Shown piece by piece: positions 6,192-59,964 of a stretch of DNA of 60,251 nt. The notes under the pieces were generated by a model, which saw only the letters and a program-made list of their open reading frames with translations, was not told the DNA's origin and did no database searches. Made by a program: the position numbers and the translations under genes. The stretch covers positions 1 to 60,251 of IMG/VR virus record IMGVR_UViG_3300042478_002844. One strand, written 5' to 3'. Within the stretch, counting starts at the first letter, position 1; the number at the start of each line of letters is the position of its first letter. Source of the stretch: a virus. Its lineage: Duplodnaviria > Caudoviricetes.

Positions 6192-6527
6192 ATGCTTGAA
6201 TTTAACTCAAACAACTACGAAATGCGTAAGCAAGCTGCAAAGCATAACGGCAAAGACGTTCCTCTTGGAAAGATTATGAAGGGTGACGTAAAGAAATTCA
6301 AGGTTTACGTCAAAGATCCAAAAAGTGGAAATGTTAAGAAAGTAAACTTTGGACACGGTGGTTCAAGTGCCAAGGCAAAGGGTGAAAAAACACTTTCTAT
6401 CAAGAGAAATCAGCCAAGCAGACAGAAAAGCTTCCTTGCTAGACATAAGTGTGATCAGGCAAAGGATAGAACTTCAGCAAAGTACTGGAGTTGCAAAGCT
6501 TGGAGAAAGAATACCAAGCTACCGTGA
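6192..6527 (+). CDS. Small basic Cys/His phage protein (KKFKVYV...ARHKC...YWSC family), probable head-internal protein
   Basis: GGAG before ATG 6192. RKQA junction precedes a module I recognise from many phage metagenomic proteins. Confidence 0.8.
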   Translation: MLEFNSNNYEMRKQAAKHNGKDVPLGKIMKGDVKKFKVYVKDPKSGNVKKVNFGHGGSSAKAKGEKTLSIKRNQPSRQKSFLARHKCDQAKDRTSAKYWSCKAWRKNTKLP

Positions 6528-7261
6528 TTAAAGTTTCTTCATCAGATTGGTTTAAAATTGGCATAGAAAACAACTGGATTTCTTCAAAGAAAACAGTTGC
6601 TATTAGTGCTATGGATATGCCGTTTCCGTCTGCTTCTGGAGGAATTATTGATTCTGCGCGTGATTATGTTAGAGAAAAGAATAAGCCAGATTCTGGATCA
6701 GAATCTAGTAAAGAAGATTCTGGATCAAGCTTAAATAGCGTTCTTGGCATTACTGTTGGTTCAATTGCTGCACAAAATATTGTTTCTAACCTTATGTCAA
6801 GAAGTCAGATAAAGATGACTCCTGAACAAATTAATTCAATAGCATCTGATCCCAAAAAGTTAAAAGATTTATTAAGCTCTCGTGGGATTACTTCTGTAGA
6901 TCAATTAGCTGTATTTCAAGAAAAACCAAGCTTGTTTAGAAGAATGGTCGGACCAAGTAAAACTAGAACTGCTCTTGGAAGAGGAGCTGCTGCTTTGGGT
7001 GGTGGAGCTGCTGGGTGGCTTCTTACTGATTGGATTACTGATGCGACAGTAAATCAAAGAAAAGGCTTTAATGTTGCGTCAAAATCTGCTATTGAGCAAA
7101 AGGCAGGCAGTATACCTAAATTCAAAGGCGCTGGGCTTAAACTTACAATGATAGCAAGAGAAGTTTCTGGCATATCTAAAAGTTTAGATAAAACAATGGC
7201 AGAAGGTGTTGCTACATTTTTAGATTTATTAAATCAAATAGACTCTCAAAAAATACAGTAG
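6524..7261 (+). CDS. Leader-bearing glycine-zipper protein
   Basis: GTGA overlap start. IKVSSSDWFKIGIENNW leader, GRGAAALGGGAAGWL zipper, GISKSLD motif. Confidence 0.8.
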   Translation: MIKVSSSDWFKIGIENNWISSKKTVAISAMDMPFPSASGGIIDSARDYVREKNKPDSGSESSKEDSGSSLNSVLGITVGSIAAQNIVSNLMSRSQIKMTPEQINSIASDPKKLKDLLSSRGITSVDQLAVFQEKPSLFRRMVGPSKTRTALGRGAAALGGGAAGWLLTDWITDATVNQRKGFNVASKSAIEQKAGSIPKFKGAGLKLTMIAREVSGISKSLDKTMAEGVATFLDLLNQIDSQKIQ

Positions 7262-7265
7262 TAAC

Positions 7266-7293
7266 AAGGAAAAGACTTTTATTATCTTAAATA
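7266..7293 (+). promoter_or_regulatory. Putative phage promoter AAGG-N20-AATA
   Basis: Recurrent motif, 27 nt upstream of ATG 7321. Confidence 0.55.
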
Positions 7294-7320
7294 AGAAATA
7301 TAATTTGGAGGAATTTATAA

Positions 7321-8220
7321 ATGGCACGTTTTATCAAAATGGCAAATGCATCTCAACCAGTAGTAAAAATGAGCTCAAAAGAATGGCTTCAGGTTGGATT
7401 AAAAAGTGGATTATTTTATAAAGATGACAGCTCTATAAAGATAGCATTGACGGGTGCTCCGAGTGACAATCCAGTTGTTGGTGCAGGTAAACTTTTTGAT
7501 GAAAATCAAGGTAAATTAAAAGATCCACAGTGGCAAGCCGCATTGGGAGCATATAAAAGCAAACGTGCCCCGCAGGGGTATAGTGTCGTTGAAACAAGTC
7601 CAGGAAGTGGTATTTTTGGACTTAAAAATAATGCAACCGGTGCTTTGAATATGCCAGGAAGAGGTAATCAAAACTTGGCTAGTATGTTAAACTCTGTTGG
7701 AAGAAAAGCTGCTGCAGGTGGAACCGTGTTGCCAAATCCAATTCCAGACGGTGGCGGTGGCGGAGGAGGAACTACTCCAGCTCCAATTCCAGACGGTGGC
7801 GGTGGCGGAGGAGGAACTACTCCAGCTCCAGTTCCAGCTCCAGCTCCAAGTCTAACTAGGGGACAAATTCTTGGACGTGGCGCTGCCGCACTTGGCGGTG
7901 GTCTTGCTGGTTATTATGGAACAGGAGCTATGCTCGACGCAGCAAGAGGTAATAATCAAATGAAAGACTATCGTCCACAAGACTTTCATAGAGGTATAGC
8001 TTCTTTACAAATGGTCTTTCAACCAATCGCTGGCATTAGTAAAGTGCTAGATAAAGAAATGAGAAATATTATGGGAACAATAGCTGATTTGCAAAATCAA
8101 TTGCAACAAACTCAGCCTGCTTCTCGTGGTCCTTCAATGCGTAAACAAGATCAGGTTGCAGAAGCTTTACGCAATAGATATGCTCCCGGTTCATCTGCTC
8201 CAGATTACTTACCTAAATAA
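7321..8220 (+). CDS. Leader-bearing glycine-zipper protein
   Basis: GGAGG RBS. VKMSSKEWLQVGLKSGL...IKIA leader, GRGAAALGGGLAGYYG zipper, GISKVLD motif. Confidence 0.85.
   Translation: MARFIKMANASQPVVKMSSKEWLQVGLKSGLFYKDDSSIKIALTGAPSDNPVVGAGKLFDENQGKLKDPQWQAALGAYKSKRAPQGYSVVETSPGSGIFGLKNNATGALNMPGRGNQNLASMLNSVGRKAAAGGTVLPNPIPDGGGGGGGTTPAPIPDGGGGGGGTTPAPVPAPAPSLTRGQILGRGAAALGGGLAGYYGTGAMLDAARGNNQMKDYRPQDFHRGIASLQMVFQPIAGISKVLDKEMRNIMGTIADLQNQLQQTQPASRGPSMRKQDQVAEALRNRYAPGSSAPDYLPK
7738..7830 (+). repeat. Exact 45-bp tandem duplication (PIPDGGGGGGGTTPA x2)
   Basis: ccaattccagacggtggcggtggcggaggaggaactactccagct occurs at 7738 and 7783. Confidence 0.95.
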
Positions 8221-8229
8221 GAGGTTAAT

Positions 8230-8970
8230 ATGAAAAACGAAATGATTAAAATATCTCAAACACAATGGCTTGCTTCTGGTATAAGAAAAGGTTATGTTAT
8301 TCCAGAAAAAGACGGCACATTTACTCTTAACAAAGAAGCTCAGCTTGCTTACAATTTAGGAAAAGCGGTTGGCCCAGCTCTTGCAGGAGCAGGCAAAACA
8401 TTCTTTGGCTCTGCTCTTAGATCAGGATTGACTGGTGCTGGAGTAGGAGCTTTAGCAAGTATATTTAGTAAAACTAATCTTCTTCAATCTGCTCAAGATT
8501 GGTGGAAGGGCGGTTCTGAAACTCCAGAGATGTTAAAAGCTTTACAGAACGCTCAGGCAAGATTCCAACAAGAAGTTAAGAGTAGACTAGGCGGAATATC
8601 TGACAGATTAGATAATGACCTAAAGAATATAGACGCAAAGCTGAGCGAAAGAATAGCAACAATCTCTCAAAGATTGACTGAAAGAGGTATTGGACCTGCT
8701 TTTGAAGCTGGAAAGAGACTTCTCGAAGAAGATGAATTAATGAATGACATGTTGATAGCAACTGGCAAGTCTCCAACAAATTATGAAGCTCTGACAGGCA
8801 AGACTACTGGAGATCAGTTGCCACCAGCTCCAACTCCAGCAGCTGCTCCTTCAGCTCCAACTCCAGTAGTTTCAACACAGCCTGCAGCCGCAGATTTGCA
8901 GGCAGCTCCTAAAGCTAAGCCTTCTGGAACTGGAACTACAGCTGCATTAATGCAAAGATTTGATCAGTAA
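8230..8970 (+). CDS. Leader-bearing glycine-zipper protein
   Basis: IKISQTQWLASGIRKGY...NKEAQ leader, GLTGAGVGALAS zipper, GISDRLD motif, Pro/Ala tail. Confidence 0.85.
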   Translation: MKNEMIKISQTQWLASGIRKGYVIPEKDGTFTLNKEAQLAYNLGKAVGPALAGAGKTFFGSALRSGLTGAGVGALASIFSKTNLLQSAQDWWKGGSETPEMLKALQNAQARFQQEVKSRLGGISDRLDNDLKNIDAKLSERIATISQRLTERGIGPAFEAGKRLLEEDELMNDMLIATGKSPTNYEALTGKTTGDQLPPAPTPAAAPSAPTPVVSTQPAAADLQAAPKAKPSGTGTTAALMQRFDQ

Positions 8971-8983
8971 TAAGGATATAAAA

Positions 8984-9916
8984 ATGAACAATAGAACATC
9001 AAAAATAGCTAACAAATTCCTTTTAAAGTCTTCTGGAAATTTTGTAAAAGTAGCTCAACAATCTGCTGCAGATGCAAGAGCTCAAGCAAAGATTCGTAGT
9101 GCAAATCGCGAAAAAGCGCTCGCATTCATGAAAGAAGGAAGATTTGACAGAATCCCAGTTGCAGGAGCAGGTGGCGTATATTTTGCTAGTCTAGAACCAG
9201 CAGAAAAACTACAGATTGTTAACTATTGGAAAAATAGAATAGCAAATGGCCCAAACAGAGAAGCTGCTGCAAAAGATTTTATTGGTCTTATGGATATTGG
9301 AGATCAACAGGGTCTTGGGATAGCTGATCTTTCATCTAAAGATGGTTTTCCATCTCGTATCAAGTATTTAGATGAATTGGCCTCTGATATAGCAACCGAC
9401 ATGCAAGCTGCCGCTGGCCAAGGTGCAGGTGCAGCAGCTTCTACTGGCCCAGCTAGTGGAGGTAGCCCTAAAGCTCAAGGTCCACAGCAGGACATGAGAA
9501 GTCCATACGATCCTAATGTTCCACTAGGCGCTGGTCCAGAAGGCCAAAAGCCATCTCCAACTACACCAAGTAAAGACGATGTTGCTTCTAAGGCTCCAGC
9601 AGGTGGTGCAGCTGCTGCAGATACTACTGGAGGCGGTGGTGCTGCTGGTGGTGGTGCTGCTGGTGGTGCTGCTGGTGGTGCTGCTGCTGGTGGTGCAACC
9701 CCGGCCACTCCAGCCAATACAAATCTACCTCCCTCTGGCTCATCTGCATCTAATGTTCGTCAGCCAAACTACTTCTTCCCAGAAGGTAAGCAAGCAGCCA
9801 TTGAAGGGTACTACGGTCCCTATGCAGGACCAAATGGCAAAAAGCGCTACTTTAAGGTTGTATACGATAGATCTTCTAAGAGATATTCGTACACTGGTGA
9901 ATTTGAAGATAGGTAA
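8984..9916 (+). CDS. Hypothetical protein with K-x-A junction and Gly/Ala/Pro low-complexity region
   Basis: AAGGA RBS before ATG 8984. FVKVAQ junction. Confidence 0.8.
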   Translation: MNNRTSKIANKFLLKSSGNFVKVAQQSAADARAQAKIRSANREKALAFMKEGRFDRIPVAGAGGVYFASLEPAEKLQIVNYWKNRIANGPNREAAAKDFIGLMDIGDQQGLGIADLSSKDGFPSRIKYLDELASDIATDMQAAAGQGAGAAASTGPASGGSPKAQGPQQDMRSPYDPNVPLGAGPEGQKPSPTTPSKDDVASKAPAGGAAAADTTGGGGAAGGGAAGGAAGGAAAGGATPATPANTNLPPSGSSASNVRQPNYFFPEGKQAAIEGYYGPYAGPNGKKRYFKVVYDRSSKRYSYTGEFEDR

Positions 9917-25385: not shown

Positions 25386-25841
25386 TTATAGACCTGGTGG
25401 AGGGCCTGAAGGGGCTCCACCTACAGGCTGACCTGGAGGCTTAGATCCTAGATTAATTCCCATCACAGCTCTAATAAAAGGGGGATCTTGATCTGGAGCG
25501 TCTGGATCAACAGTCTCTGCAATATCTAATTGGCCGGGACTTAATATAGACCCATTTGCCATAATAGCCATAATAGCAGATGTTTCAATATCATGACCAG
25601 AATCTATTGCATTTTTAAAGTGCTTATTTAATTTTTTAAGCAACTTCTTATCATCTTTTTTAATATCATTTATATTTTCAGCATCTACTCCAGATACTGT
25701 GCCGACTCTTTGCTCAGATGGTCCAGCTGGTCCAGCACCTCCTGGTGGAGGCGGAAGACCTCCTGCTGGTGGCGGTGGTGGTGGCGGTGGGGGCGGCGGT
25801 GGAGCTCCCTTTGCTTGAGATATCTTGTACCAGTTATTCAT
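25386..25841 (-). CDS. MNWYK-leader protein with poly-proline tracts
   Basis: MNNWYKISQ, then a poly-Pro run. Confidence 0.8.
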   Translation of the reverse strand: MNNWYKISQAKGAPPPPPPPPPPPPAGGLPPPPGGAGPAGPSEQRVGTVSGVDAENINDIKKDDKKLLKKLNKHFKNAIDSGHDIETSAIMAIMANGSILSPGQLDIAETVDPDAPDQDPPFIRAVMGINLGSKPPGQPVGGAPSGPPPGL

Positions 25842-38755: not shown

Positions 38756-39525
38756 GCTTCTTTACCTTTAATTGTGAGTTTTATAATTCTGTTAAAATCT
38801 TTTGCGTCTTCTTTGTATCCTTGAGCAGTTTCATCTTTTTCATCATCCGTCCATTGCCAGTTCCAAAACAAATCATCTGGAGTTTTAAATCCATAAAATT
38901 TCATGACTTGCTTTTGCAGATCGATTACATTACTTCCATTAAAATTATGTCCAGTAAATATGCAACCTGCATCTATATTTGCAACAACATTATTTTCACC
39001 TAAAGTTGAATGTCTATTTTCTATCCAAGACAGTCTTTCAATAATTTTTTGATATATGCTATTTGCTTGCCCCCATCTGATTGATCCAAAGAATACTACA
39101 GCATCGCATTCAAAGAGTGGTTTCGTTATTTTCCATAACTCATCATTGGGGTTATTAATGGAGGCCCAGCATCTGTGATATCCAGATGGATCTTTTTCTT
39201 TATCTTTTAGTAAAGCATCTTTTGCTCCGCAGGTATTTCCATCCATCCTGGATATGTTTGCCTCACAGATATCAATCTTTAATTTTGCTGCATCTACTAC
39301 TGTAACTTTTTCATCTAATTTAGAAGCCATTGTAAGAGCTATTTGAGTTGATTTAGGAATATCAATAGGCGCTTTTTTCATTTGAAACCTATTGGAAGTT
39401 GTAACAAAAAGTATGTTTTTCTTCTGCTGCAAGTATGATACAGTTTTGTCAAATTGACTAACAAAATCTCCATTAGATTTAGTTAATAACTGTGCTAATG
39501 AAAATATTTGCTTGTCTTTATTCAT
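38752..39525 (-). CDS. Flavodoxin-fold (NADPH-dependent FMN reductase-like) protein
   Basis: ILFVTTSNR, PKST, CDAVVFFGSIRWG, Cys motifs. Confidence 0.75.
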   Translation of the reverse strand: MNKDKQIFSLAQLLTKSNGDFVSQFDKTVSYLQQKKNILFVTTSNRFQMKKAPIDIPKSTQIALTMASKLDEKVTVVDAAKLKIDICEANISRMDGNTCGAKDALLKDKEKDPSGYHRCWASINNPNDELWKITKPLFECDAVVFFGSIRWGQANSIYQKIIERLSWIENRHSTLGENNVVANIDAGCIFTGHNFNGSNVIDLQKQVMKFYGFKTPDDLFWNWQWTDDEKDETAQGYKEDAKDFNRIIKLTIKGKEA

Positions 39526-40526
39526 TACTTTTTCTTACCCTTACGCCAACCGCCACCACGCTGCTTATACCACTTTGATGCAAAAAGATTTGCATACGCA
39601 GACGGATAAACTTTAAACTTAGCTTTTGCTGCAGCCTTTGCTCTAGCCCACAATGATGGATTTGTAGGCTTATTCTTTGATGACGTGGATTTCTTCTTTT
39701 TTGCTGCAGTTTTTAATTCATCCATCATTGGTCGATCCATAAGTAGGTAAGCCTCTTCTGGATGCCCGCCTATTTCCAAATCAACCTTGTGTTTAGCTGC
39801 TTCTTTTGCTATGGCGTCTAGCAAATCTTCTCTATTTATTTCGTGTCCAGTTGCACTTTCAATAACATCCATAATTACATGAATTTGTCCAAGGTATACT
39901 GACATTTTATTCTCATCATCTTCTTCTGGAACATTATTTTCTTTTCTTTCAATATGAGATTTTACCAATCTCTCTATTGCCAATTCCAGTGGAATTGGTT
40001 CGTGTCTGCGCTTGGCAAGCTTTAGTACATCCGACCATGGCTCGCATGATGCTTCAACCACAATCTCAGATGACTGCCAATTTATATTATATTTTTCAGA
40101 CAAAGACTCTGCCTTTATGAAGGCATCGTTTAATGACGATGCTATAACAGATAACACCTTGTCATTTTCTCCATCCTTGCAAATAACATCATAAATACTT
40201 AATTCTTCAATATTAGTGCTTGCTTTTTTATTTTCAGATCTACCAAATCCGTCAGAAGGAGTGCCCTCTAAATACATATCAGTATATGGGCAGTAATACT
40301 TACCCTCCTTGGGATCATAGTAGTAGACTCCGTGGTGAAGCTTAGTCTTAAAAGGTCCCTCTAGCCCTTTACGTGTACCAAACTCACGACCGCCAGCGTC
40401 AGTTACAACATCATCTTTCTTTTTCTTTTTTTCATCTTTACTTGCAGTTTTAACCAGAGACTGCTTACATTTGCTTTCAGAAACCAATTTGTTCCAGTTT
40501 ATTAAAGACGGTATATGCTTGCTCAT
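39525..40526 (-). CDS. Multi-module probable head-internal polyprotein (C-terminal DUF5872-like module)
   Basis: RKGLEGPF..YYDPKEGKYY and PTNPSLWARAK..YPSAYAN..YKQRGGGW modules, separated by K-x-A sites. Confidence 0.75.
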   Translation of the reverse strand: MSKHIPSLINWNKLVSESKCKQSLVKTASKDEKKKKKDDVVTDAGGREFGTRKGLEGPFKTKLHHGVYYYDPKEGKYYCPYTDMYLEGTPSDGFGRSENKKASTNIEELSIYDVICKDGENDKVLSVIASSLNDAFIKAESLSEKYNINWQSSEIVVEASCEPWSDVLKLAKRRHEPIPLELAIERLVKSHIERKENNVPEEDDENKMSVYLGQIHVIMDVIESATGHEINREDLLDAIAKEAAKHKVDLEIGGHPEEAYLLMDRPMMDELKTAAKKKKSTSSKNKPTNPSLWARAKAAAKAKFKVYPSAYANLFASKWYKQRGGGWRKGKKK

Positions 40527-40699: not shown

Positions 40700-40919
40700 A
40701 ATTAAGGGTCTTTTTAGATTCAGTCAGCTGTCTAAAATAACTTGCTACTTCTAAAAGATCATCGTGGGCAGTTGTGATGTGCTCTAAAACCCAAGGTTCT
40801 ACCGAAACATGATCTATATTTGCATCTAAAACTTTTGTCAAAAGAAGTATTTGTTTAATTTTTTCTTTTGTCATGCCATCTGCTTGCTCAGAGGCAAGTT
40901 TGAATATTGGTTTTTTCAT
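40698..40919 (-). CDS. Small phage protein (xxWVxxxITxAxDxL module)
   Basis: ATGA-coupled start MKKPIFKLAS. Confidence 0.7.
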   Translation of the reverse strand: MKKPIFKLASEQADGMTKEKIKQILLLTKVLDANIDHVSVEPWVLEHITTAHDDLLEVASYFRQLTESKKTLN

Positions 40920-41545
40920 TTCTTTTTTCCTTGCTTTTTCTTTACCTGCATAACGCAACTTTCATATTTTTTCTTGTTTTCTCTACCAACAGTAGACGTA
41001 CACACGGCCCAAGGGTTTGGGTCATATTCTTTTTTCTTTTTTGCTTCTTTATACCAGCTATTATTTTTACTACTTGTTTTTTGAGCTTCAGATTTTGGAG
41101 GCAGTGGTTTTCTTTCCTCTAAGCGCCTACTTGTGTCAAAAGGTTCAAATCTTGCTTTCATTCTTTCAAGAGCTTCTGGTGGGACTCCGTGTATGTTTTT
41201 TGTTGATTCACCTGTTGGGGAAACAGTCCCTTCAACATGCACAAATGTTACGTAATAACCTCTTTCTTGAGCAGCTTTTACATATGGCGACATTTCCCAG
41301 TGTTGAGTGTTGGTATTTGCCAATGCTATTTTTGTCTCACCACGATCCATTGCTTCTATAACTTTGTTTTTTGTTGATTCATGAGCTTTTCCCAGAAGAG
41401 ATGGATTAAAGCTCATATTTTCACCATATAGTCCAGGATAATCATCTGCTGCATAAACGTTTCCAGGAGCTAAAGCTTCTGCGACAGCACTTTTTCCGCT
41501 TCCCGGTAAACCTCTCATGATGTATAGTGTCTTTGAATTGTTCAT
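40916..41545 (-). CDS. P-loop kinase (AAA_33/N4BP2-like) fused to an NPWAVCT module
   Basis: MRGLPGSGKS, NTNTQHWEM.PY, NIHGVP...ERMK.RFE. Internal NSWYKEAK precedes the Cys module. Confidence 0.85.
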   Translation of the reverse strand: MNNSKTLYIMRGLPGSGKSAVAEALAPGNVYAADDYPGLYGENMSFNPSLLGKAHESTKNKVIEAMDRGETKIALANTNTQHWEMSPYVKAAQERGYYVTFVHVEGTVSPTGESTKNIHGVPPEALERMKARFEPFDTSRRLEERKPLPPKSEAQKTSSKNNSWYKEAKKKKEYDPNPWAVCTSTVGRENKKKYESCVMQVKKKQGKKK

Positions 41546-42712: not shown

Positions 42713-42751
42713 AAAGATAAAGAGCAGGTTTCGGCCTGCTCTTTATCTTTT
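42713..42751. terminator. Bidirectional terminator
   Basis: 16-bp stem aaagataaagagcagg / cctgctctttatcttt with TTCG loop. Confidence 0.9.
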
Positions 42752-42869
42752 ACTTATTTTTCTTTTTTCTACCAGCGCAATGTGCTTTTTGACTAAAACC
42801 TTTTGGCCGAGAACAGTTAATCGATTTTTTGTACTTTTCTGACCATTTAGCGGTTTTTATGTTAATCAT
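42750..42869 (-). CDS. 39-aa basic Cys micro-protein MINIKTA-KWSEKYKKSINCSRPKGFSQKAHCAGRKKKNK
   Basis: Translated by hand; below the ORF-track cutoff. A recognisable phage module follows the KTA junction. Confidence 0.85.
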   Translation of the reverse strand: MINIKTAKWSEKYKKSINCSRPKGFSQKAHCAGRKKKNK

Positions 42870-44265: not shown

Positions 44266-44576
44266 TCTACTTCTACCAATACTGCAGGCTGGCTTGGCTC
44301 ATCTCCATATTGCCCTGGAGTAATTTTAACAATTTGTCTATCTTCTTTATATGGTGGATCCATAAAAAATTTACTTCCAACTTGTAAAAACGGGCCACCA
44401 GAGAAGTCTACAAATTCATACTCATTTTTTGTATCATCAGCATAACCGCACCTAACAAAATGAGAATCTCCATATACAAGATACTCTTTGTTAGAAATTC
44501 TCTTAATGTATCGTATTTCGCCGTATCTACTTTTTATCACGGCGTTTTGGTTTATTGGTATTCTTTTTAGCCTCAT
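44262..44576 (-). CDS. Hypothetical phage protein
   Basis: SRYG...FVDFSGGPFL.VG. Confidence 0.7.
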   Translation of the reverse strand: MRLKRIPINQNAVIKSRYGEIRYIKRISNKEYLVYGDSHFVRCGYADDTKNEYEFVDFSGGPFLQVGSKFFMDPPYKEDRQIVKITPGQYGDEPSQPAVLVEVE

Positions 44577-44985
44577 TATTATTTTTCGTCATAACGATAT
44601 CGTCATCTTGAAGATTGAAGAGTTCATCATGAATTTCACCAATGTAATAGTCAAATAAGTTCTCAGCCACAGAACGCACTAACATATCGTTTACGGACAT
44701 CTCTCCATGCTCTTTTGTATATATTTTTATGCCTTCTTTAGCTGCTTTTTCAAATGCCAATACACCCATTTCTCTATTAAATAATCCTTTTTTAAGCTTT
44801 ATGGACAAGTTGTGTATAAGCGGGTTTATTAATTTTTTATATAATTTATTATAATGAACAATATGTGCTGTTAATTCATACACATTAGGAGCATGTTTAA
44901 GATGAGATACTTTGACCCAGCCAGCATGGATACCTATGTTTATCCAGTCATGCTTTGATATATTAATGCCATTATATTTAAACAT
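44527..44985 (-). CDS. W-x3-G-x3-GW leader protein
   Basis: ISKHDWINIGIHAGWVKVS. Confidence 0.75.
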   Translation of the reverse strand: MFKYNGINISKHDWINIGIHAGWVKVSHLKHAPNVYELTAHIVHYNKLYKKLINPLIHNLSIKLKKGLFNREMGVLAFEKAAKEGIKIYTKEHGEMSVNDMLVRSVAENLFDYYIGEIHDELFNLQDDDIVMTKNNNEAKKNTNKPKRRDKK

Positions 44986-45741: not shown

Positions 45742-48456
45742 CTATCTAGCTGCTCCGCACTTAGTGTGCTTATACCAGTTTATGCTTGCAAATTTTGGAC
45801 TAGATTGTGTCAAATCTAAATGCCAATATGTGGCATTTTTATATTGCACTTTTTTCATACCATATCTCATTGCTTTTTCATCATATAATTTTTTGTACAA
45901 CTCCATTGTTGAAGCTTTTGCATACTGTCTCCAGGTAATATACAAGTATGAAGCAGAAGCAACAAACAGGTGTTTTATGCCAAGCCGACTGCAGTACATA
46001 AATATCTCATTGTAAAAAGTGTCTAGCCAATCAGCAAATCTATTTTCAACTTTAGATTTAAATTCTGAAAGATGTGGTCTATTTAAGTGAGCATTGGAAG
46101 TTGCCATAAAATTGGCAACATCATTTATTTGTTTTTGCATTGCTTGCATTTTGTGTTCTATAGCCAATAATTTACTCTTATCGTTTATGAATGGATCAAC
46201 TCTTTCGGCTTTTTGTTGTTCTATCTTTTCAATAGCTTTGCTAATTTGCTGAACAAAATTCTGATCATTTGCGTTAGCTATTTTTTGCTTTAATTCTTTT
46301 ATTTTCAATTCATAGTATTGATCAGGAGTTAATCTAATTAAGTTTTTACTTATTTTGTCATGCTCTTCTTTTAACTTAGCAAGCTCTTGAGATAAAGACT
46401 CTAGACTTTTTAATGGATCTTTCATTCTTGGAGTATTCTGCATAATATCACTTTGTATCTCATTGATGTACATTATTTTATTATATAGATCTACAGTACC
46501 GCCAATCCATCCAATAAAATCGTAATGACTTTCTTGGCTTAACGCCCCTTCTTCATTTGATACCCATTCTTGTTTTGGAATGCTATATCCATGAAAATTA
46601 AGTCCAGTTTGTCTATCAAACACTGTTTCCATTTTTACTGGGTCTGATGCGCTCTTTTTAGGATAAATTGCAATATGGAATGACTGATAAGGAACTTCAC
46701 TTGGCATTGGCACATCTTTGCGCTCAAATGCTCCTCCTCCAGGATATCTTGCGTCAAGTCTCAATTGAGATATATGCTCAAATGGCTTCTGAATAATTCC
46801 CTCTTGTTTTGCTTTTTCTGATTCAGCATTTTCAAATGAGCGCAAACTTATTGAAGGATCAGACAATATCTTCTTTTGTTCTTCTACATGCTTTGCGATT
46901 TCTTCACGCTTGGATCTTTCTTCTGCTCTTCTTGCTTCTTCTTCTCTTTTTAGTTGCTCTTGTTGTTCACGCATCACCTTTTGTTGCTCTTCATATTCTC
47001 TCATTGCTTCTATGAGATCTGCATAATTTGGATTTTCTTCCGTTATAGACTTCTTCATTTTTTCAGCGTCTTTTGCTGGCATGTCTGATATGATTCTCTC
47101 AATTTGTTGCAGATTTGAGCCTATCTGTTCATTAGTCATTTGTGCAACAAGATTACGTTCTTCAGAAAAAATGGAAAGCAAATTTGGATCTGAAGCAACA
47201 GTCCATTTAATTACTTCTATTTGCTTTTTTATTTCTTGTACGTATTCATCTACTCCAATAACATGATGTTCTCTAGCCATGTCTTCAAGATCTTTTGCAA
47301 TACCCTCCCAATCATTTATTCCAAAATTTACAAACGGATTACTTAGGTTAACATTTACTTGACCACTCTCCTCATCCCATTCAAGCCAGTCGTGACTTTT
47401 CATTCTTTCTGTAAATGTTTTTCTTCGGTAGTGACGAACATTAGGATCTTCTTCCTCTGGAGGTAGCTCTTTTTCAGCCCATCTTCTGTCTGCGTAATCA
47501 AAGTCTGATGCAGCGCTTTCAGCTTGATTTTGTGCTTCTTCTTCTGCAAAACGATTTTTGTTGTTCTCAAACCATTTATTTTTTACGTCATCTTCAAAAA
47601 AACTTTGTATCTCTTCATCTAGATCTGTTTTATGATAAGGCATTTTTTCTATATTGCTTACATAAAAAGTTGCAACATTTTTATATGCGTCTCTAGCTAT
47701 TGAAAGAGCTTCATCTTCACTAAATGTTTTATCATTTGAAAAACCGCCCTGCATAGCACTCAAGGCCGACCTTTGAACTATCATTTCATTCATATTATAA
47801 TTGTATCTATCAAGCCAATTTTTTAATGTAGCGGATGAGTTCTCAGATATAACCTTTCCAATTAAATTATCTGCGGCGTCTCTTGCAGTCCAGCTCATTG
47901 CCTTCAACCCGCTAATAGAATCAATCATACCTATCCAATAGTTGGACGTATCTGTTTCTCCAGATCCTAATGCTGCAGCTATTTCCTGTAAAGTAACTGC
48001 TTCTTTTGATTTATTCTCCGCTCTTGAACTTGTAGGATAACTGAACAAATTTGCAATAAAGCTATCTTCATCAAATTTTTCCATCACAAACTTAAGGATA
48101 TCATCTTCATCTATCTCGCTTATATTTTCCCAAAATGTATCATCATTAAATAAGCCTTCATAAGATTCATACAAATAATCAGAATCTACAAACTGAGATA
48201 TAGCCTCATAATCCGGCTCTGGATCTAATTTAGCGTTCTCTAGCTCATATTGCATATGACTAAAAGCATTTAACAAAAACTGAAGCTTATACTTCTTTCC
48301 GCCCAATTTTTCAGAGTTTTTCTTCATAGCTTCGTATTCAGGACCCATGTCAAATAGGTATTGTTGACCTGGAGTGTGACTGAACTGTAGCAGTCTGATT
48401 ATGTTGGTAGGGCTGCACTTAAGAGTATGAGATTGAGCGAATTTATACCATTGCAT
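45742..48456 (-). CDS. Large protein with E[IL]QSD domain, paralog 1
   Basis: MQWYKFAQ leader, GWIGG.VD..NK.MYINEIQSD, C-terminal KFASINWYK. Confidence 0.85.
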   Translation of the reverse strand: MQWYKFAQSHTLKCSPTNIIRLLQFSHTPGQQYLFDMGPEYEAMKKNSEKLGGKKYKLQFLLNAFSHMQYELENAKLDPEPDYEAISQFVDSDYLYESYEGLFNDDTFWENISEIDEDDILKFVMEKFDEDSFIANLFSYPTSSRAENKSKEAVTLQEIAAALGSGETDTSNYWIGMIDSISGLKAMSWTARDAADNLIGKVISENSSATLKNWLDRYNYNMNEMIVQRSALSAMQGGFSNDKTFSEDEALSIARDAYKNVATFYVSNIEKMPYHKTDLDEEIQSFFEDDVKNKWFENNKNRFAEEEAQNQAESAASDFDYADRRWAEKELPPEEEDPNVRHYRRKTFTERMKSHDWLEWDEESGQVNVNLSNPFVNFGINDWEGIAKDLEDMAREHHVIGVDEYVQEIKKQIEVIKWTVASDPNLLSIFSEERNLVAQMTNEQIGSNLQQIERIISDMPAKDAEKMKKSITEENPNYADLIEAMREYEEQQKVMREQQEQLKREEEARRAEERSKREEIAKHVEEQKKILSDPSISLRSFENAESEKAKQEGIIQKPFEHISQLRLDARYPGGGAFERKDVPMPSEVPYQSFHIAIYPKKSASDPVKMETVFDRQTGLNFHGYSIPKQEWVSNEEGALSQESHYDFIGWIGGTVDLYNKIMYINEIQSDIMQNTPRMKDPLKSLESLSQELAKLKEEHDKISKNLIRLTPDQYYELKIKELKQKIANANDQNFVQQISKAIEKIEQQKAERVDPFINDKSKLLAIEHKMQAMQKQINDVANFMATSNAHLNRPHLSEFKSKVENRFADWLDTFYNEIFMYCSRLGIKHLFVASASYLYITWRQYAKASTMELYKKLYDEKAMRYGMKKVQYKNATYWHLDLTQSSPKFASINWYKHTKCGAAR

Positions 48457-52139: not shown

Positions 52140-52783
52140 TGTTTAAGATTTTTTTTGCATCATCTGTATTATTAATTTCGTCTTATGTCCAAGCAGGGTT
52201 GACGAATGGTGGTTTTGAAAGTTTTCCAGTCGTAGGTTATGGTTTTTATTCTGGAAGCGGAGACCCCACAACGGGCTGGGCAACAACAGCCCCGGACAAT
52301 ACACTTGAAATTTGGTCCGATGGATTTTTAGGAGTTCCAGCATATGAGGGCAGCTATTTTGCAGAATTGAATGCGAACTACGCTTCAACCCTATATCAGG
52401 AAGTTAATGGTCTTGGTGATTTTAACAGCATTAACTGGCATTTTGCTCATCGTGGAAGAGATGGAGTTGACACCATGCGCCTTACAATCACAGATCTAGG
52501 TGCAGATCAAGTTTACGGTAACGGAGATGATGTCACCATATTCCAGCAAGAATACTCTGCTGGAAATACTGCGTGGGTATTCAATTCAGGGACAATTATC
52601 TCAATAGGCAACAAGACGCGTTTTGCCTTTGAAGCTGTAAGCGCAGTTGGAGGCACAACTCAAGGAAACTTAATAGACGATTGTGATTTCGGACTTGATG
52701 TTGTTATTCCATCTCCAGGAATGCTATCTCTGATTTTGATAGCTGGACTATGCGGAGTAAGCGGACGTAAGCGCAAGTCGTAA
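52139..52783 (+). CDS. PEP-CTERM-type (IPSPG) exosortase-substrate surface protein
   Basis: Signal peptide, LTNGGFES carbohydrate-binding-like domain, IPSPG + TM + RKRKS. Confidence 0.85.
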   Translation: MFKIFFASSVLLISSYVQAGLTNGGFESFPVVGYGFYSGSGDPTTGWATTAPDNTLEIWSDGFLGVPAYEGSYFAELNANYASTLYQEVNGLGDFNSINWHFAHRGRDGVDTMRLTITDLGADQVYGNGDDVTIFQQEYSAGNTAWVFNSGTIISIGNKTRFAFEAVSAVGGTTQGNLIDDCDFGLDVVIPSPGMLSLILIAGLCGVSGRKRKS

Positions 52784-53127: not shown

Positions 53128-53583
53128 TTACCTCACTATAAAGCCATTTGAATTTATGCGTTTTGTCCCTGTTGGATCTTCTATGAATGTTGGTATTTTA
53201 TTATCTATTTCAACAGAGCTTTCGGAATTGTATAAGTAATCACTTAGATCTATATCCTGTCCATTATAAAATGCGTTTAAAGAATTAGTAAAATTATTAA
53301 ATTCTACAGAATTTATCATGTCGTATCTAACTGCAACATTTAAATTTTTCTTCAATGCAATGCCAAGCATTTTTGCTTCATATGGCACACTTTCTTCAGA
53401 AGCAGCAAGATCGTTGAGCTCTTTCATTGCTGCGTTCGCATATTTCTTAAAGTCTGTAGATAACTTTTCTTTTTTTTCTGGATTTGCCCTAAGCTGCTTA
53501 GCAAGATCTGCGTCATAAGCAAGAAGCATGAGCTTCATCCTTTTTGCGTCATCACCAGTACCATAAAGTTCAGAGTAATTCAT
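53128..53583 (-). CDS. Hypothetical protein
   Basis: Start MNYSELYG at 53583 is ATGA-coupled to the upstream stop. Confidence 0.7.
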   Translation of the reverse strand: MNYSELYGTGDDAKRMKLMLLAYDADLAKQLRANPEKKEKLSTDFKKYANAAMKELNDLAASEESVPYEAKMLGIALKKNLNVAVRYDMINSVEFNNFTNSLNAFYNGQDIDLSDYLYNSESSVEIDNKIPTFIEDPTGTKRINSNGFIVR

Positions 53584-53822
53584 TTTCTTGCTACATTCAT
53601 GTAAAATTGAGCCATTCCACGTACAGAGGCATCTTCCGATTTCATTGCCTTGTCTGCACATGCTTGAGACGGTCCATCAAAACCATTTCTCTTGCAATAT
53701 TCAGTGAATCTGCCTTCATGATGAACTGCTTCTTGAATCCATTTCTTCTTTTTAGCTTCCTTCATCCATCCTGTTTGTTCACCAATTTTTTCCCATTCAG
53801 ATTTTGTAAGTTTATATTCCAT
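53580..53822 (-). CDS. W-x3-G-x3-GW leader plus KWIQ module micro-protein
   Basis: YKLTKSEWEKIGEQTGWMKEA|KKKKWIQEAV. GGAGG RBS. Confidence 0.85.
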   Translation of the reverse strand: MEYKLTKSEWEKIGEQTGWMKEAKKKKWIQEAVHHEGRFTEYCKRNGFDGPSQACADKAMKSEDASVRGMAQFYMNVARK

Positions 53823-53872: not shown

Positions 53873-54526
53873 TTATTTTCTAATGTCCCAATATTCTTGT
53901 ATCCATTTTTGCAGCATATCAAATATGTCGAATCTTATTTTTGCTTTTTCTTTATCCATAGACTCCATTAACTGCATTAAACTATCTTCACCCTGCATTG
54001 ATAGCATGTGTTTTTGTGCCTTCATAACTTCTGCATCTCTTCTCTCTATTGCTGATACAGTGTGTACAAGCCATGGTCTTGGATTCTTGGAATCAAATGG
54101 CACAGTGACTTTTTCTTTATCTTTATTTTGTTCGTGTGCTGGATTATCTCCACATTCATCACGCCATTCTGCTCTGGTTGTTAACCATTGCTCGTATACA
54201 TGATGGTCTTCAAATATTCTTCTAATGAGCAAATAATTATGAGAATTTCCTTCTTTATCTTCCCATTTACACAATTGAGCGCCAATTCTGTAACCCTGTG
54301 TTGCAAGACCTCGTGGAGCCAAAATAAACATTGGGGCAGCCCCTGTGTACTTACCTTGGTTGATAATTTCTAATTTTTCTATTCTTTCTTTTACCTCTTG
54401 AACTATTGTCTTAACTGGTTTGTTTGGAAATGTTCTTTGGAAATTTTGCAAATCACGTTGTGCATCAGGAGAATAGATAATTCTCTCTATTTGTAAACTA
54501 AATTGTGCAAATTTATACCAATTCAT
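53873..54526 (-). CDS. MNWYK-leader protein, possible RelE/ParE/HigB-like domain
   Basis: IIYSPDAQRDL...GYRI...LLIRRIFEDH.VY pattern. Confidence 0.55.
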   Translation of the reverse strand: MNWYKFAQFSLQIERIIYSPDAQRDLQNFQRTFPNKPVKTIVQEVKERIEKLEIINQGKYTGAAPMFILAPRGLATQGYRIGAQLCKWEDKEGNSHNYLLIRRIFEDHHVYEQWLTTRAEWRDECGDNPAHEQNKDKEKVTVPFDSKNPRPWLVHTVSAIERRDAEVMKAQKHMLSMQGEDSLMQLMESMDKEKAKIRFDIFDMLQKWIQEYWDIRK

Positions 54527-56045: not shown

Positions 56046-56279
56046 TTATTCTTTGCTTTTTTTACCCTTCATAATACGCTCAAGGTATCCAGAACGAAGT
56101 GCACGTTCAATTTCTTCGTCGGTCATGCCTATATTTTTCATACGTTCAATAAATTCTTCTTTATATTGCTCTGGAGTTTTTTCGTCAGTGCCGTCATCTT
56201 CGGCTCTTAGTGCAGTTTTCATCCATCCAGCATTTACTCCAATTGATGTCCATTCTTCTTTTGATAATATGTATTTCAT
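56046..56279 (-). CDS. W-x3-G-x3-GW leader micro-protein
   Basis: MKYILSKEEWTSIGVNAGWMKTA. GGAG before ATG 56279. Confidence 0.8.
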   Translation of the reverse strand: MKYILSKEEWTSIGVNAGWMKTALRAEDDGTDEKTPEQYKEEFIERMKNIGMTDEEIERALRSGYLERIMKGKKSKE

Positions 56280-56296
56280 GTATTTCTCCATTATTA

Positions 56297-56806: not shown

Positions 56807-57339
56807 TCTTCTTCTTTGTCATAAAAAAGTTTTTTCACTTCTGGATGAACTTCTTTTGATTCACTTGGAATATTTATCTTTTTAACTTTTAATGGGACAT
56901 CCAGTGCGCGTGCAGCAGCGGCGCGAGTTCTGCCACCAATAATAAACGAGCCTATGTCTGGAACTTCAACAATATTAACGGGAGGATAAGTTCCTTGTTT
57001 TACCATTTCAACAAGTCTATTCAGATATGCGCGAGCATTCGCACTTCTTGCGACTGACCATTTGTCTTCATTTACGTCTTCTCTGTTCTCTGTTGAAGCG
57101 TATTCAATAAAATTCTTTACTCTATCTTCTTCGCTTTCGCCAGATATTTCGGGGGTATAAGTGTTCCCTACCGCATCCAGATCTCGTGGATCCATGTACG
57201 AAACAGGAGCATCGCTCCATGCTTTTACCAATTCATCTTTTCCTAACGACGAGCCAATTCCACGTTCTTGGTACCATTTAAACTCTCCCAAGAAATCTTC
57301 TACATCACTGTAAGACTGAGCTCGTTTATACCAATTCAT
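56803..57339 (-). CDS. ParB/Srx N-terminal-like protein with MNWYK leader, paralog 2
   Basis: MNWYKRAQ, YPPVNIV...FIIGGRTRAAAARAL.VPL. Confidence 0.7.
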   Translation of the reverse strand: MNWYKRAQSYSDVEDFLGEFKWYQERGIGSSLGKDELVKAWSDAPVSYMDPRDLDAVGNTYTPEISGESEEDRVKNFIEYASTENREDVNEDKWSVARSANARAYLNRLVEMVKQGTYPPVNIVEVPDIGSFIIGGRTRAAAARALDVPLKVKKINIPSESKEVHPEVKKLFYDKEEE

Positions 57340-57341: not shown

Positions 57342-57656
57342 TTAGTCAAATTCATGTTCATATGCAGCTTCTTCCACCCGTTCATCGTCTTCAAGATTTT
57401 CCACAATGTTTTTTTCCATTTCTGGAGTTACTGAAACAATGTTGTCTTCTATGTCAAAACATTCTACTTCCTCTAATTCCGCCTTAATGTTTACATCACT
57501 TGTTGGTGGTTCGTATCTGTCACCTGGATCTCGTGATATTGACCAGTGTATCGTTGCTCTTCCATGGCAAAAGCAAGTTGGATTATCAAATTCCATATTA
57601 TCAAATTCCCATAAAAACTTTCCACTTCTTCCACGAGCGCTCTTGTACCAATTCAT
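57342..57656 (-). CDS. MNWYK-leader acidic protein
   Basis: GGAGG before ATG 57656 (MNWYKSAR). Confidence 0.8.
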   Translation of the reverse strand: MNWYKSARGRSGKFLWEFDNMEFDNPTCFCHGRATIHWSISRDPGDRYEPPTSDVNIKAELEEVECFDIEDNIVSVTPEMEKNIVENLEDDERVEEAAYEHEFD

Positions 57657-58081: not shown

Positions 58082-58627
58082 TTACCTTGAGAATATATTT
58101 ACCTTTGGTCCAGTGTATACGCCGTTTTTTACCTTTTTATGCAGCTCGTTGAGCAGGTCTGGTATTCCCTGTGTTTCCACTACCGGAAATGCAGGGGGCA
58201 CAATCCTTCTAACAGTCTCGAAAAGGCCGCTGCTTGGGTGTACGTAAGCCGCCACCGCTGCATTCCCATTGCTTTTGTGGAATATGAGTCCTAGCGGCGT
58301 GTCCATGTACGGGGAAGCTGCCCCGTATATCTGACTGCCAAAGCCGGAATCCGCAAGATGTTCAGATACCGTAAACGGCATGGCGTAAAGGCCACGCTCC
58401 CTGTTGCCCATGCCCCACATGAGACGAACAAACCCGTCTATTGTCTTACTTCCATGCCCCAAAAATTCTCGTCCAGCTTCTTTGGACTTTTCCCGTATCT
58501 CAAGCTCCATTTCCTTGCCAATGCCGTCATTGGAGTTTATGGGTTGCTTTTGCCTCTTCAGCTCCTCTACGGCAGCGTTCATCTGCTCATGGACTGCCTC
58601 TGTGTTTGCTCGCTTATACCAGTTCAT
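58082..58627 (-). CDS. MNWYK-leader protein
   Basis: MNWYKRAN. 181 aa. Confidence 0.8.
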   Translation of the reverse strand: MNWYKRANTEAVHEQMNAAVEELKRQKQPINSNDGIGKEMELEIREKSKEAGREFLGHGSKTIDGFVRLMWGMGNRERGLYAMPFTVSEHLADSGFGSQIYGAASPYMDTPLGLIFHKSNGNAAVAAYVHPSSGLFETVRRIVPPAFPVVETQGIPDLLNELHKKVKNGVYTGPKVNIFSR

Positions 58628-58743
58628 TCTTTTCCCTTGGGCGCACAGTTAGGAACGAAGCGCTTTCCCTTGCGCTTCATGCCCACGCGCTTGTAGCCCT
58701 TCCAGCAGCTAGATTTTGCCCTTACCCCAAAAATTATATCCAT
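58624..58743 (-). CDS. 39-aa CWKGY...VPNC micro-protein, copy 1
   Basis: Translated by hand: MDIIFGVRAKSSCWKGYKRVGMKRKGKRFVPNCAPKGKE. ATGA overlap with the next gene. Confidence 0.8.
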   Translation of the reverse strand: MDIIFGVRAKSSCWKGYKRVGMKRKGKRFVPNCAPKGKE

Positions 58744-59750
58744 AGATTTTTAGGATTTCCCTCTACCGCAGATATCATGTTGGAAATCCATATCCTCTTT
58801 ACGTTTGCAACCGATTCTTTCGAATTGTATGAACACGGTGACATGTGAACACCCTCGTATCGACGCAAGCTCTCGGATTTGCGCCTGCCACCCTCTATCG
58901 AATACCCACGAACCCTGCCACTCTCCAGAGCGTCCTTTAGGGCATCGTTATCAACAATAATGTCTGTCGCAAGGTTCACCAGGATCAGGTCCTTGCACAT
59001 TCCCAAAAGCTTCCCGTTTATAAGACCGATGTTGGTTCGGTTCGTATGAGGCTGATGGCACGGAACGTGAATGCTCACCACGCAAGATTCCCTGAATATG
59101 CTCTCTAGCGAATCCTTCGCACCAAGCTTCGGATTTATATCGCAATACAGGACTCGCATGCCCATGGCTTCCAGAAACGAACCCACCCGAGAACCTATGT
59201 TGCCCTTGCCTATTATTCCCGCCGTCTTGCCCTTCAGGTCAAGCGACTCCCTGCACTCCACATCACGATCCTTCAGAACGTCAACGGATGCCAAATGACG
59301 GTTCCTTGCGTGCAAAAGTATCTCCGTAAGTGCTGATTCAGCAACACTTTCCGTTACAGCGTCAGGACAGCTCTGAATATCTATGCCAAGCCCCTTTGCA
59401 ATGCCAGGACTGAAAAAATCCACGTCAGTCATGTCAACATTGATGCACTTCAATCCCTTTACGCCCGGAGATTTATAAAATACCTCCGTAAGCTTGTCAA
59501 TCTTGTTAGGGTCAGGGAAAGGCATGGGATCCATGTTAAGCATTAGATAGTCATAGCTATCGCAGCGCTTCCCAAGCTCCCGCTCCGTAATACTCTTTGT
59601 CTTAACCCAGTCTACCTCCGCAACCGCACGCAGAGGCTCTAGATCCTCTTCCGTCATGCCCCACATATCGGGAAGTGACACCAAAAGCACCTTAGGACGC
59701 TTTCTCGCTGATCTAGACCCTTCCACTTTTGCCCATTTTAACCAATTCAT
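58734..59750 (-). CDS. D-2-hydroxyacid dehydrogenase-fold protein with MNWLK leader (catalytically atypical)
   Basis: TESVAE, LKGKTAGIIGKGNIGSRV, VSIHVP, LVNLA..IVDNDALKDALESG. Confidence 0.85.
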   Translation of the reverse strand: MNWLKWAKVEGSRSARKRPKVLLVSLPDMWGMTEEDLEPLRAVAEVDWVKTKSITERELGKRCDSYDYLMLNMDPMPFPDPNKIDKLTEVFYKSPGVKGLKCINVDMTDVDFFSPGIAKGLGIDIQSCPDAVTESVAESALTEILLHARNRHLASVDVLKDRDVECRESLDLKGKTAGIIGKGNIGSRVGSFLEAMGMRVLYCDINPKLGAKDSLESIFRESCVVSIHVPCHQPHTNRTNIGLINGKLLGMCKDLILVNLATDIIVDNDALKDALESGRVRGYSIEGGRRKSESLRRYEGVHMSPCSYNSKESVANVKRIWISNMISAVEGNPKNLWI

Positions 59751-59797
59751 AAAATAATCCTAAATAGACTCTACCGTATCAATTCCTAATTTATGTA

Positions 59798-59854
59798 CTA
59801 CACACCTCCCACTAAGGTATCCCTTTTTGTCTTTGCCGATTTATACCAGTTCAT
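59798..59854 (-). pseudogene. 18-codon leader-only ORF MNWYKSAKTKRDTLVGGV
   Basis: Translated by hand. ATGA-coupled, TAG at 59800-59798. Confidence 0.5.
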
Positions 59855-59964
59855 CCCTTTCCCTTAGGAACGCAGTTCGGAACAAGGCGTTTTCCCTTGC
59901 GCTTCATGCCTACTCGCTTGTATCCCTTCCAACAGCTTCCTTTTGCGCGTTTATACCAGTTCAT
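59851..59964 (-). CDS. 37-aa CWKGY...VPNC micro-protein with MNWYK leader, copy 2
   Basis: Translated by hand: MNWYKRAKGSCWKGYKRVGMKRKGKRLVPNCVPKGKG. GGAGG RBS. Confidence 0.85.
   Translation of the reverse strand: MNWYKRAKGSCWKGYKRVGMKRKGKRLVPNCVPKGKG

Follow-up and report, generated by a model that had tools for sequence, protein, structure and literature searches.

The stretch of DNA analysed here, called the window below, is the whole of the virus record IMGVR_UViG_3300042478_002844 as available, 60,251 nucleotides (nt) long. Going by its sequence, it is a fragment from an uncultured marine megaphage clade, and it codes for a collagen-like tail fibre, a class I ribonucleotide reductase, a dUTPase, ThyX, a sigma factor, a SNF2-type helicase and a LysM protein, along with numerous genes that have no database match. 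Distributed over it are small modules, lettered A to G, that follow a K-x-A tripeptide, some encoded as mini-genes with a short leader and others as parts of larger proteins. An earlier note on this DNA had listed seven such sites as a library of basic, Cys-containing modules, several of them missed by gene calling. On balance, K-x-A is probably the cleavage and targeting motif of a head-maturation protease of non-T4 type, and the modules are probably capsid cargo. The modules and the proteins that carry them are listed here (ORF, open reading frame; aa, amino acids).

6192..6236, plus strand: leader of module A, MLEFNSNNYEMRKQA, ending in M-R-K-Q-A, with K-Q-A at 6228-6236 (ORF 6192-6527)
6237..6527, plus strand: module A, 96 aa and stop, starting AKHNGK, then ...ARHKC...YWSC; phrog_7595
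42750..42869, minus strand: mini-gene of module B, 39 aa, MINIKTA (K-T-A at 42849-42857) followed by KWSEKYKKSINC...AHC
58624..58743, minus strand: copy 1 of module C, 39 aa, decayed leader MDIIFGVRA, then KSSCWKGY...VPNC
59851..59964, minus strand: copy 2 of module C, 37 aa, leader MNWYKRA, then KGSCWKGY...VPNC
59798..59854, minus strand: 18-codon remnant ORF MNWYKSAKTKRDTLVGGV, a leader with hardly any cargo, within a duplicated cassette
40916..41545, minus strand: AAA_33 kinase-like protein, with ...SWYKEA (W-Y-K-E-A at 41042-41056), a K4 linker and C-terminal module D
40919-41041, minus strand: module D, beginning KKKKEYDPNPWAVCT, then ...YESC
53580..53822, minus strand: gene of module E, 80 aa, with a 23-aa leader ..SEWEKIGEQTGWMKEA (53754-53822) that ends ...GWMKEA
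53583-53753, minus strand: module E, KKKK, then WIQ (KKKKWIQEAV..), C..C
39525..40526, minus strand: 333-aa multi-part protein, host of modules F and G, with S-L-V-K-T-A, module G, ...ELKTA and module F in this order
40443-40457, minus strand: L-V-K-T-A of the host of F and G
40263-40376, minus strand: core of module G (GLEGPF..YYYDPKEGKYY), residues 51-88, about 22 residues past SLVKTA
39705-39713, minus strand: K-T-A of the host of F and G, followed by a K-rich linker
39528-39704, minus strand: module F, beginning AKKKKSTSSKNKPTNPSLW

All seven sites of the earlier note lie where it had placed them, although copy 1 of module C has V-R-A in place of K-x-A (the copy of one relative retains MNWYKRA). 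The modules are indeed basic, with isoelectric points of 9.5-11.0 for A-F; the eighth module added here, G, has a value of 7.8. Their description as Cys-containing fits A-E, which have two Cys each, but not F, which has none (G has one). As to gene calling, a public collection of about 15 billion called proteins lacks B and copy 1 of C as exact sequences but has A, copy 2 of C, E and the hosts of D and F.

No Pfam or NCBIfam family covers any of modules A-G, while modules A, F, G and C match PHROG families 7595, 27331, 13298, 9737, 727 and 4359 (E 1e-13 to 4e-7), all annotated as of 'unknown function'. Module C aligns to internal segments of much longer PHROG profiles and is therefore a travelling mini-domain. 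Module A has four invariant residues, H40, H70, C72 and C86, across 50 sequences, a hint of a metal site. Its structural model (predicted local distance difference test, pLDDT, 80.4) has no meaningful match in the PDB, with a best Foldseek E of 0.5 and a best VIA-align Z of 2.3, and so gives no sign of a DNA-binding fold.

The motif was evaluated in 75 window proteins against shuffled sequences (phi, hydrophobic residue). Bare K-x-A is weakly enriched (123 against 100.4 expected, z 2.5), phi-phi-K-x-A more so (26 against 9.4, z 5.1) and W-phi-K-x-A strongly (10 against 0.5, z 14). In 11 of the 75 proteins phi-phi-K-x-A begins within the first six residues, compared with 0.27 +/- 0.52 in the shuffles. 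There are two leader types, of 7 or about 22 residues: M-(N/Q)-W-(Y/L)-K-x-A, which starts eight ORFs at 48-60 kb, and a longer form, ..W..phi-G...G-(W/Y)-phi-K-x-(A/S), found in four window proteins. Besides those given above, the leaders include the following.

48436..48456, minus strand: MQWYKFA, leader of a 904-aa protein
54506..54526, minus strand: MNWYKFA, leader of a 217-aa protein
57319..57339, minus strand: MNWYKRA, leader of a 178-aa protein
57636..57656, minus strand: MNWYKSA, leader of a protein of about 104 aa
58607..58627, minus strand: MNWYKRA, leader of a 181-aa protein whose ATG and the stop of copy 1 of module C overlap
59730..59750, minus strand: MNWLKWA, leader of a 2-hydroxyacid dehydrogenase homologue (338 aa)
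56046..56291, minus strand: 81-aa protein with a leader of the long type, ..SKEEWTSIGVNAGWMKTA, then an acidic body
44527..44985, minus strand: 152-aa protein with a leader of the long type, ..SKHDWINIGIHAGWVKVS

The codons of the leaders vary synonymously (TAT/TAC, AAA/AAG, TGG-ATG-AAR and all four Ala codons, GCN), and it is therefore the peptide that is conserved, not a DNA signal. An extended -10 promoter in the MNWYK DNA (TGGTATAAA) was considered and ruled out, as variants with TAC, AAG, TTA and ATG retain the peptide and lose the DNA motif. Both K-x-A sites of the protein hosting F and G are kept at orthologous positions in the related contig G031, with different flanks. The two copies of module C sit in a 119-nt direct repeat of 82% identity (58601-58719 and 59828-59946), which spans the module together with the first part of the MNWYK gene that follows; the duplication has left behind the 18-codon ORF consisting of a leader only. 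Over 30 module codons the copies differ at 9 synonymous and 4 non-synonymous positions. This arrangement suggests that cassettes are shuffled through recombination between leaders.

Strings resembling NWYK also occur at C-termini, as ..PKFASINWYKHTKCGAAR, ..PKYAKVNWYKKVKNAMV and ..SINGWYNFIKNT (window 45742-45790, 48443-48497 and 37130-37169), and as ..SWYKNATSCSWSL at the C-terminus of the helicase of the related contig G022. A subtilase (54588-56009, minus strand; Pfam S8, 4.6e-41), which appears to have a signal peptide and whose C-terminus, ..DGFVDGSDLGMLLSAWG, is dockerin-like, lies within the cluster of tagged genes. It was set aside as a candidate processing enzyme, its N-terminus resembling, by eye only, an export signal.

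The modules recur in other viruses, where the residues ahead of them differ by lineage. In IMG/VR, module A has relatives numbering at least 585, and across hundreds of them homology begins exactly at the residue after K-Q-A. Junctions were read at the best 80 of these loci, which give 42 distinct upstream contexts, and the module is C-terminal in all 80. The residue before the junction (P1) is E in 26 contexts, D in 13 and Ala in 3, the latter being the kin of the window (..MKKEA/A, ..MRKEA/A and ..LVKEA/AEYQG, where the slash marks the junction); P3 is hydrophobic in 26/42, against a background of 31%. Among named GenBank genomes, the acidic pattern is seen as ..PLEE/ in HTVC008M, ..PMME/ in Melnitz and ..ELDE/ in Flavobacterium phage immuto. 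In podophage HTVC112P, Roseobacter phage CRP-902 and a Nitrosopumilaceae spindle-shaped virus, module A is leaderless and starts M-A-x-Y. The boundaries thus read ..L-E-E/A-E-F, ..M-M-E/S-E-Y and ..L-D-E/G-E-Y in T4-like phages, ..K-E-A/A-E-Y in the kin of the window and ..K-Q-A/A-K-H in the window itself. Since the boundary is the same in three modes of delivery, the free-standing protein naturally begins at the residue that follows the presumed cut.

The archaeal virus just mentioned carries module A as ORF21, and a contig labelled as a giant-virus metagenome-assembled genome carries it as well; the mini-domain therefore crosses virus realms.

Module F, with at least 341 relatives in IMG/VR, occurs at 78 parsed loci in 46 fused forms and as 32 short, mostly leaderless genes (MASPK-PTNPSLW). 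In the 29 distinct contexts of the fused forms, P1 is E in 25 and P3 is L, I or F in 26. Numerous fused forms are strings of modules with acidic linkers between them, such as gene 176 of S-SCSM2R and, in Sf-CH5, gene 127 among others. The earlier note had stated that similar modules in T4-like phages follow Glu sites, and the E or D found in 39/42 contexts of module A and the E in 25/29 of fused module F bear this out. When the residues before the modules were tabulated by clade, as it had proposed, they proved to be clade-specific (E or D as opposed to K-x-A) and not random.

The remaining modules gave smaller samples. Module D was found at 10 loci, with six K-x-A leaders (among them MNHGNWYKQA/KKK, MKVIKTA/S, MKILKTA/S and ..MNWYKSA/KKEK), three junctions after E or D and one of neither kind. 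In a set of 21 chosen records, module C is present in 6, B in 1 and F in 2. Module C follows ..ILTE/KCW, ..VITE/KCW and ..DLDE/KCW in phages with an S77 protease (see below) and ..GWLKESKA/GQCW and ..YLKVAEDELA/DACW in the megaphage group; its junction in Sf-CH5 is ambiguous. Module E, found as a single weak locus in IMG/VR, has 165 representative clusters; where it has a long upstream part, phi-x-E adjoins it in 21/31 cases, against 8/31 in a control window. A tblastn search of GenBank phages with module F alone gave no match, probably through low-complexity masking, and the whole protein hosting F and G matched there in module G only, in 49 Vibrio phage records.

In polyproteins of T4-like cyanophages (Sf-CH5, S-SCSM2R and record L135), a motif (G)FSNWRxE(L/F)xE is repeated just ahead of modules, for example NWRVELNE/G, NWRQDLDE/KCW and NWREEFFHE/M. 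It has the N-W start in common with the megaphage MNWYKxA, and the two look as if they were related. In the 488-kb megaphage genome G027 (296,4xx-297,1xx), about 1.4 kb downstream of the gene for the major capsid protein (MCP), a 230-aa ORF carries three modules (an RRWNC-type module, C and G).

The type of junction can be compared with the prohead protease of each virus. The proteases of T4, phiKZ, 201phi2-1 and SPN3US are described as cutting after Glu (PMC5694885, PMC9026906). Peptidase family S77 (PF03420), that of T4 gp21, is present in 6/6 named genomes with E-type junctions, in 0/3 named small viruses with leaderless modules and in 0/5 complete genomes of the K-x-A clade. Among IMG/VR contigs, mostly fragments, it was found in 5/25 and 5/32, and all 10 positives carry junctions of the E or D type. 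Acidic linkers ending in phi-x-E or phi-x-D stand ahead of the modules in 16/16 S77-type phages checked. Judged from these counts, tag type is clade-specific and tracks the type of prohead protease.

The K-x-A clade is reached from the window through related contigs. Three of these, G021, G022 and G031, share 64-76% nucleotide identity with the window, and the MCP of G021 (290 aa; phrog_2522, 7e-62), used as the query to locate the MCP of the clade, has a counterpart of 71-79% identity in 5/5 large megaphage genomes, which places the lineage of the window in this clade. Clade genomes of 461, 476, 488 and 548 kb have a CheckV completeness of 98-100%. A 51-aa ORF of the kin, used as a homology query, returned only itself, and the 904-aa window protein has no relatives in IMG/VR.

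In the head module of G021 the terminase is followed by the portal, a 1,916-aa protein, one of 191 aa and the 290-aa MCP. The large terminase (6005-9085) is split by an intein that contains a LAGLIDADG domain (Pfam 4.9e-18 and 2.6e-11). The 1,916-aa protein matches, at its N-terminus, the 'head maturation protease' family phrog_18299 (2.7e-12; 1e-9 for the counterpart in the complete genome G026). The gene of this putative protease-scaffold lies between portal and MCP, in the order portal, protease-scaffold, 191-aa protein, MCP. Five such proteins, with pairwise identities of 28-61%, were compared. H104 and S155 are invariant in 5/5 and may be the catalytic residues. Against PF05065, two of the five complete clade genomes gave matches, below threshold only, and a sequence search of the PDB with the protease domain gave no match.

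If K-x-A is a protease site, the main substrate of the protease would be expected to be rich in it. The five protease-scaffold proteins contain 162 K-x-A, 2.5-fold the 63.7 +/- 7.7 expected (z 12.7), and 68 phi-K-x-A against 15.9 expected, whereas the control patterns A.K, KA, K..A and phi.E stay at |z| of 0.5 or less. The residue after the motif (P1') is Ser at 41 of the 162. Among 400 spaced residue pairs K.A ranks first for conserved columns (8 columns with at least 4/5). A site (I/S)-K-(T/F)-A-S, about 20 residues ahead of the protease domain, is kept in 5/5 and parallels the LIE-9 site described for T4 gp21 (PMC9026906), and in 4/5 the N-terminus itself (MGFTKRA, MAMYKRA, MLIKVA, MAIYKTA) is the same tag as on the cargo. 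Among the 465 proteins of G026 of at least 100 aa, the protease-scaffold is the most K-x-A-enriched (31 against 11.4). Of the four ranked behind it, three belong to the head cluster and are encoded no more than 11 kb upstream, whereas the count over the entire proteome matches expectation (537 against 495.7). As a positive control, [LIV]-x-E is enriched in KVP40 gp22 (17 against 9.0, z 3.4) and gp21 (11 against 4.9, z 3.3), where K-x-A is not. The suggestion of the earlier note that the same cargo had been re-tagged for a different protease thus gains from the enrichment and conservation of K-x-A in the protease-scaffold of the clade, although this support is indirect.

Tagged proteins are not confined to the window. 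The exact pattern MNWYKxAQ occurs in 42 IMG/VR stretches and 44 distinct proteins, clustered on few contigs, the genomes of 461, 476, 488 and 548 kb among them, and the exact DNA pattern for MNWYKxA is present in 6/14 megaphage-type records, 0/16 E-type and 0/5 leaderless ones. Ten of 39 IMG/VR tagged proteins have Pfam matches, to Tad6, cREC_REC, AAA_33, PcfJ, GNAT, SLT, DUF5661 and G6PD and, below threshold, to ART-PolyVal and a methyltransferase. Seven tagged window proteins that were scanned, a set outside which the 2-hydroxyacid dehydrogenase falls, have no Pfam match. A homologue of Tad6, the type I Thoeris inhibitor (4.5e-35), with the leader MNWYKQAQ lies on a 122,591-base IMG/VR contig; it is no evidence on the function of the modules, for which the earlier note had suggested a DNA-condensing or anti-defence role.

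These data lead us to propose the following mechanism. The head-maturation protease of the clade would be a serine protease domain of XkdF/HK97-like type that is fused to the scaffold within one protein of about 1,850-1,900 aa. Its recognition and cleavage motif would most likely be phi-phi-K-x-A followed by S, Q, T, K, A or G, in which the leaders MNWYKxA, MK-phi-phi-KTA and the 22-residue ..EW..phi-G...GW-phi-K-x-A all end. These leaders may act like the capsid-targeting sequence (CTS) of T4, bringing a protein into the prohead and then being cut off. Modules A-G would form one class of cargo, made as pro-proteins or as tails of larger proteins and released at the residue where the conserved module starts. 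In other lineages the modules stand behind acidic linkers ending in phi-x-E, where the phage has a Glu-specific S77 protease, or are encoded as bare genes, in small phages. Cleavage and packaging of the tagged proteins are what we infer from these patterns; as a guess, the modules may neutralize the charge of the DNA or serve as early helpers injected with it.

Several observations weigh against this proposal. Its whole support for cleavage and packaging is correlation, and the K-E-A sites (D, E and module A of the kin contigs) can also be read as phi-x-E/A. PF04586 has no match in the five complete clade genomes, and Pfam Peptidase_S78_2 (PF14550) reaches only E 0.0023 and 18.4 bits, below its 24-bit cut-off, so that the protease assignment rests on PHROG; the AlphaFold2 model of the protease domain, built from five sequences, has a pLDDT of 50.8, too poor for a fold search. 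No conserved K-x-A was found at the N-terminus of the MCP, which has KEA in G021, KEM in G026 and G027 and REA in G030, and the shell protein is therefore probably not a substrate. None of modules A-G was found in the complete genome G026, and the modules are therefore accessory; the leaderless copies in small phages and the archaeal virus indicate that they work without a tag. The junctions of module E are mixed: among the 84 of 150 listed representatives that could be aligned from the start of the module, it is N-terminal in 32, phi-x-E lies within 16 residues in 25, phi-K-x-A is present in 4, and 23 show neither. Some tagged proteins, G6PD and 2-hydroxyacid dehydrogenase, are odd as capsid cargo. 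The link to the clade is weakened in that a 494-aa window protein has no match in the five complete clade genomes and that no head genes lie within the window, the connection running through the kin contigs.

It is also conceivable, but unlikely, that phi-phi-K-x-A is an uncleaved docking or targeting motif that binds the scaffold or another hub, the modules staying attached, for example as basic, nucleic-acid-binding tails of the kinase. Its abundance in the scaffold would then reflect self-association repeats, and the enrichment indeed suits a repeat as well as a cleavage site. The MCP without a site and the position of D, F and G in larger proteins fit this explanation too, and the T4 work described in PMC9026906 separates targeting from processing residues within the CTS. 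A docking motif does not account so readily for the placement of K-x-A exactly where leaderless homologues start and where phages with a Glu protease put their site, nor for its strict spacing and direction (K.A enriched; KA, K..A and A.K not), and the small P1 Ala with P1' Ser resembles a scissile bond.

We regard as quite improbable that the leader is unconnected with the capsid, serving instead as a signal for regulated degradation or for localization to an intracellular structure or, in a class of early or accessory genes, as a feature of the nascent peptide or of translation start, and that the modules are free cytoplasmic nucleic-acid-binding mini-proteins, as they would be in small phages. 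This would leave unexplained both the concentration of K-x-A in the head-morphogenesis cluster and protease-scaffold and the way in which tag type follows prohead protease type across clades, and the internal junctions of D, F and G lie away from translation starts. It would nevertheless suit the tagged metabolic and counter-defence enzymes (G6PD, GNAT, methyltransferase, Tad6, 2-hydroxyacid dehydrogenase), the gathering of tagged genes in the variable 53-60 kb region, beside a duplicated cassette, and the existence of leaderless modules. Finally, a compositional accident, in which K- and A-rich proteins yield K-x-A and seven cases were picked, could draw on the weak enrichment of the bare tripeptide and on the one V-R-A among the seven sites, but is hardly credible, being refuted by the window statistics for W-phi-K-x-A and N-terminal placement, by the conservation of the motif in orthologues and the restriction of the 44 MNWYKxAQ proteins to one clade, and by the enrichment in the scaffold.

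Read as a cleavage and targeting motif, K-x-A has its closest parallel in the T4 CTS and internal proteins (IPI-III and Alt, with gp21 as the protease). As described for T4 (PMC9026906, PMC5694885), proteins reach the prohead by means of leaders 10-20 residues long; there too a short leader on unrelated, mostly basic proteins ends in a protease motif, the protease bears such a site near its own N-terminus, and the cargo is variable and cassette-like. The clade differs in its motif, phi-phi-K-x-A in place of (L/I)-x-E with most tags free of Glu, in the lack of S77 from its five complete genomes and in its leader lengths, and its packaging and cleavage are predicted from sequence. The mixture of tagged Tad6, cREC_REC, AAA_33 kinase and sub-threshold ART-PolyVal is reminiscent of the injected Alt and IPI of T4. 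Like phiKZ, 201phi2-1 and SPN3US (S/A/G-x-E), the clade would consist of giant phages with propeptides on many of their head and ejection proteins, all cut at one short motif (PMC5694885). It departs from them in that those proteases cut after Glu, whereas P1 here would be Ala and P3 Lys, and in the fusion of the putative protease to a huge scaffold protein. Herpesvirus assemblins cut (V, L or I)-x-A/S and would thus agree with the clade in P1 Ala and P1' Ser. Tailed-phage prohead proteases are described as sharing their ancestry with the herpesvirus protease (PMC9026906). Lys at P3 and aromatics at P4-P5 are, however, specific to the clade, and no structural or sequence link to assemblin emerged, the model of the protease domain being poor. 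The polyvalent proteins of phages and conjugative elements, reportedly described by Iyer and colleagues in 2017, are comparable in that the tag-borne ART-PolyVal (below cut-off), cREC_REC, PcfJ, SLT and methyltransferase are typical of proteins delivered with DNA; unlike them, the clade has separate small genes, each with its own tag, and not one giant multidomain protein. The literature consulted on the motif, cyanophages, gp21 and internal proteins contained no description of such a tag system.

Some further features of the window are recorded here. Positions 1-900 hold a 9-nt periodic repeat of 96 copies in register, which encodes the collagen-like Gly-X-Y portion of the tail fibre; the latter, 1,168 aa long, runs beyond the edge of the window. 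At 25386-25841 (minus strand) a protein starts MNNWYKISQAKGA, followed by at least 12 prolines, and its orthologue in G022 starts MALWYKIAQAKGG, followed by poly-Pro. Two adjacent proteins at 51351-52139 and 52139-52783 (plus strand) end in ..PSPG, a hydrophobic stretch and RKR(K)S and look PEP-CTERM-like by eye; they have no Pfam match at E of 0.001 or less.

If K-x-A is indeed the address of capsid cargo, the tag system is the T4 principle of CTS and internal proteins in a new form, and cargo and address evolve separately, the same mini-proteins occurring in cyanophages, pelagiphages, megaphages and an archaeal virus while the tag alone changes. A wider picture, in which a pan-viral pool of exchangeable mini-proteins is drawn upon and each lineage rewrites the capsid address tag to suit its own maturation protease, is one we put forward tentatively, as a little less likely than not. 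What giant phages carry in the capsid and inject is known to date solely through mass spectrometry on a small number of phages in culture. A tag readable from sequence would predict the capsid cargo of uncultured 0.5-Mb phages, including ready-made anti-defence proteins such as the Tad6 homologues. K-x-A followed by S, Q or T would then be a new prohead-protease specificity, which could serve to package chosen proteins, a use already made of the T4 CTS.

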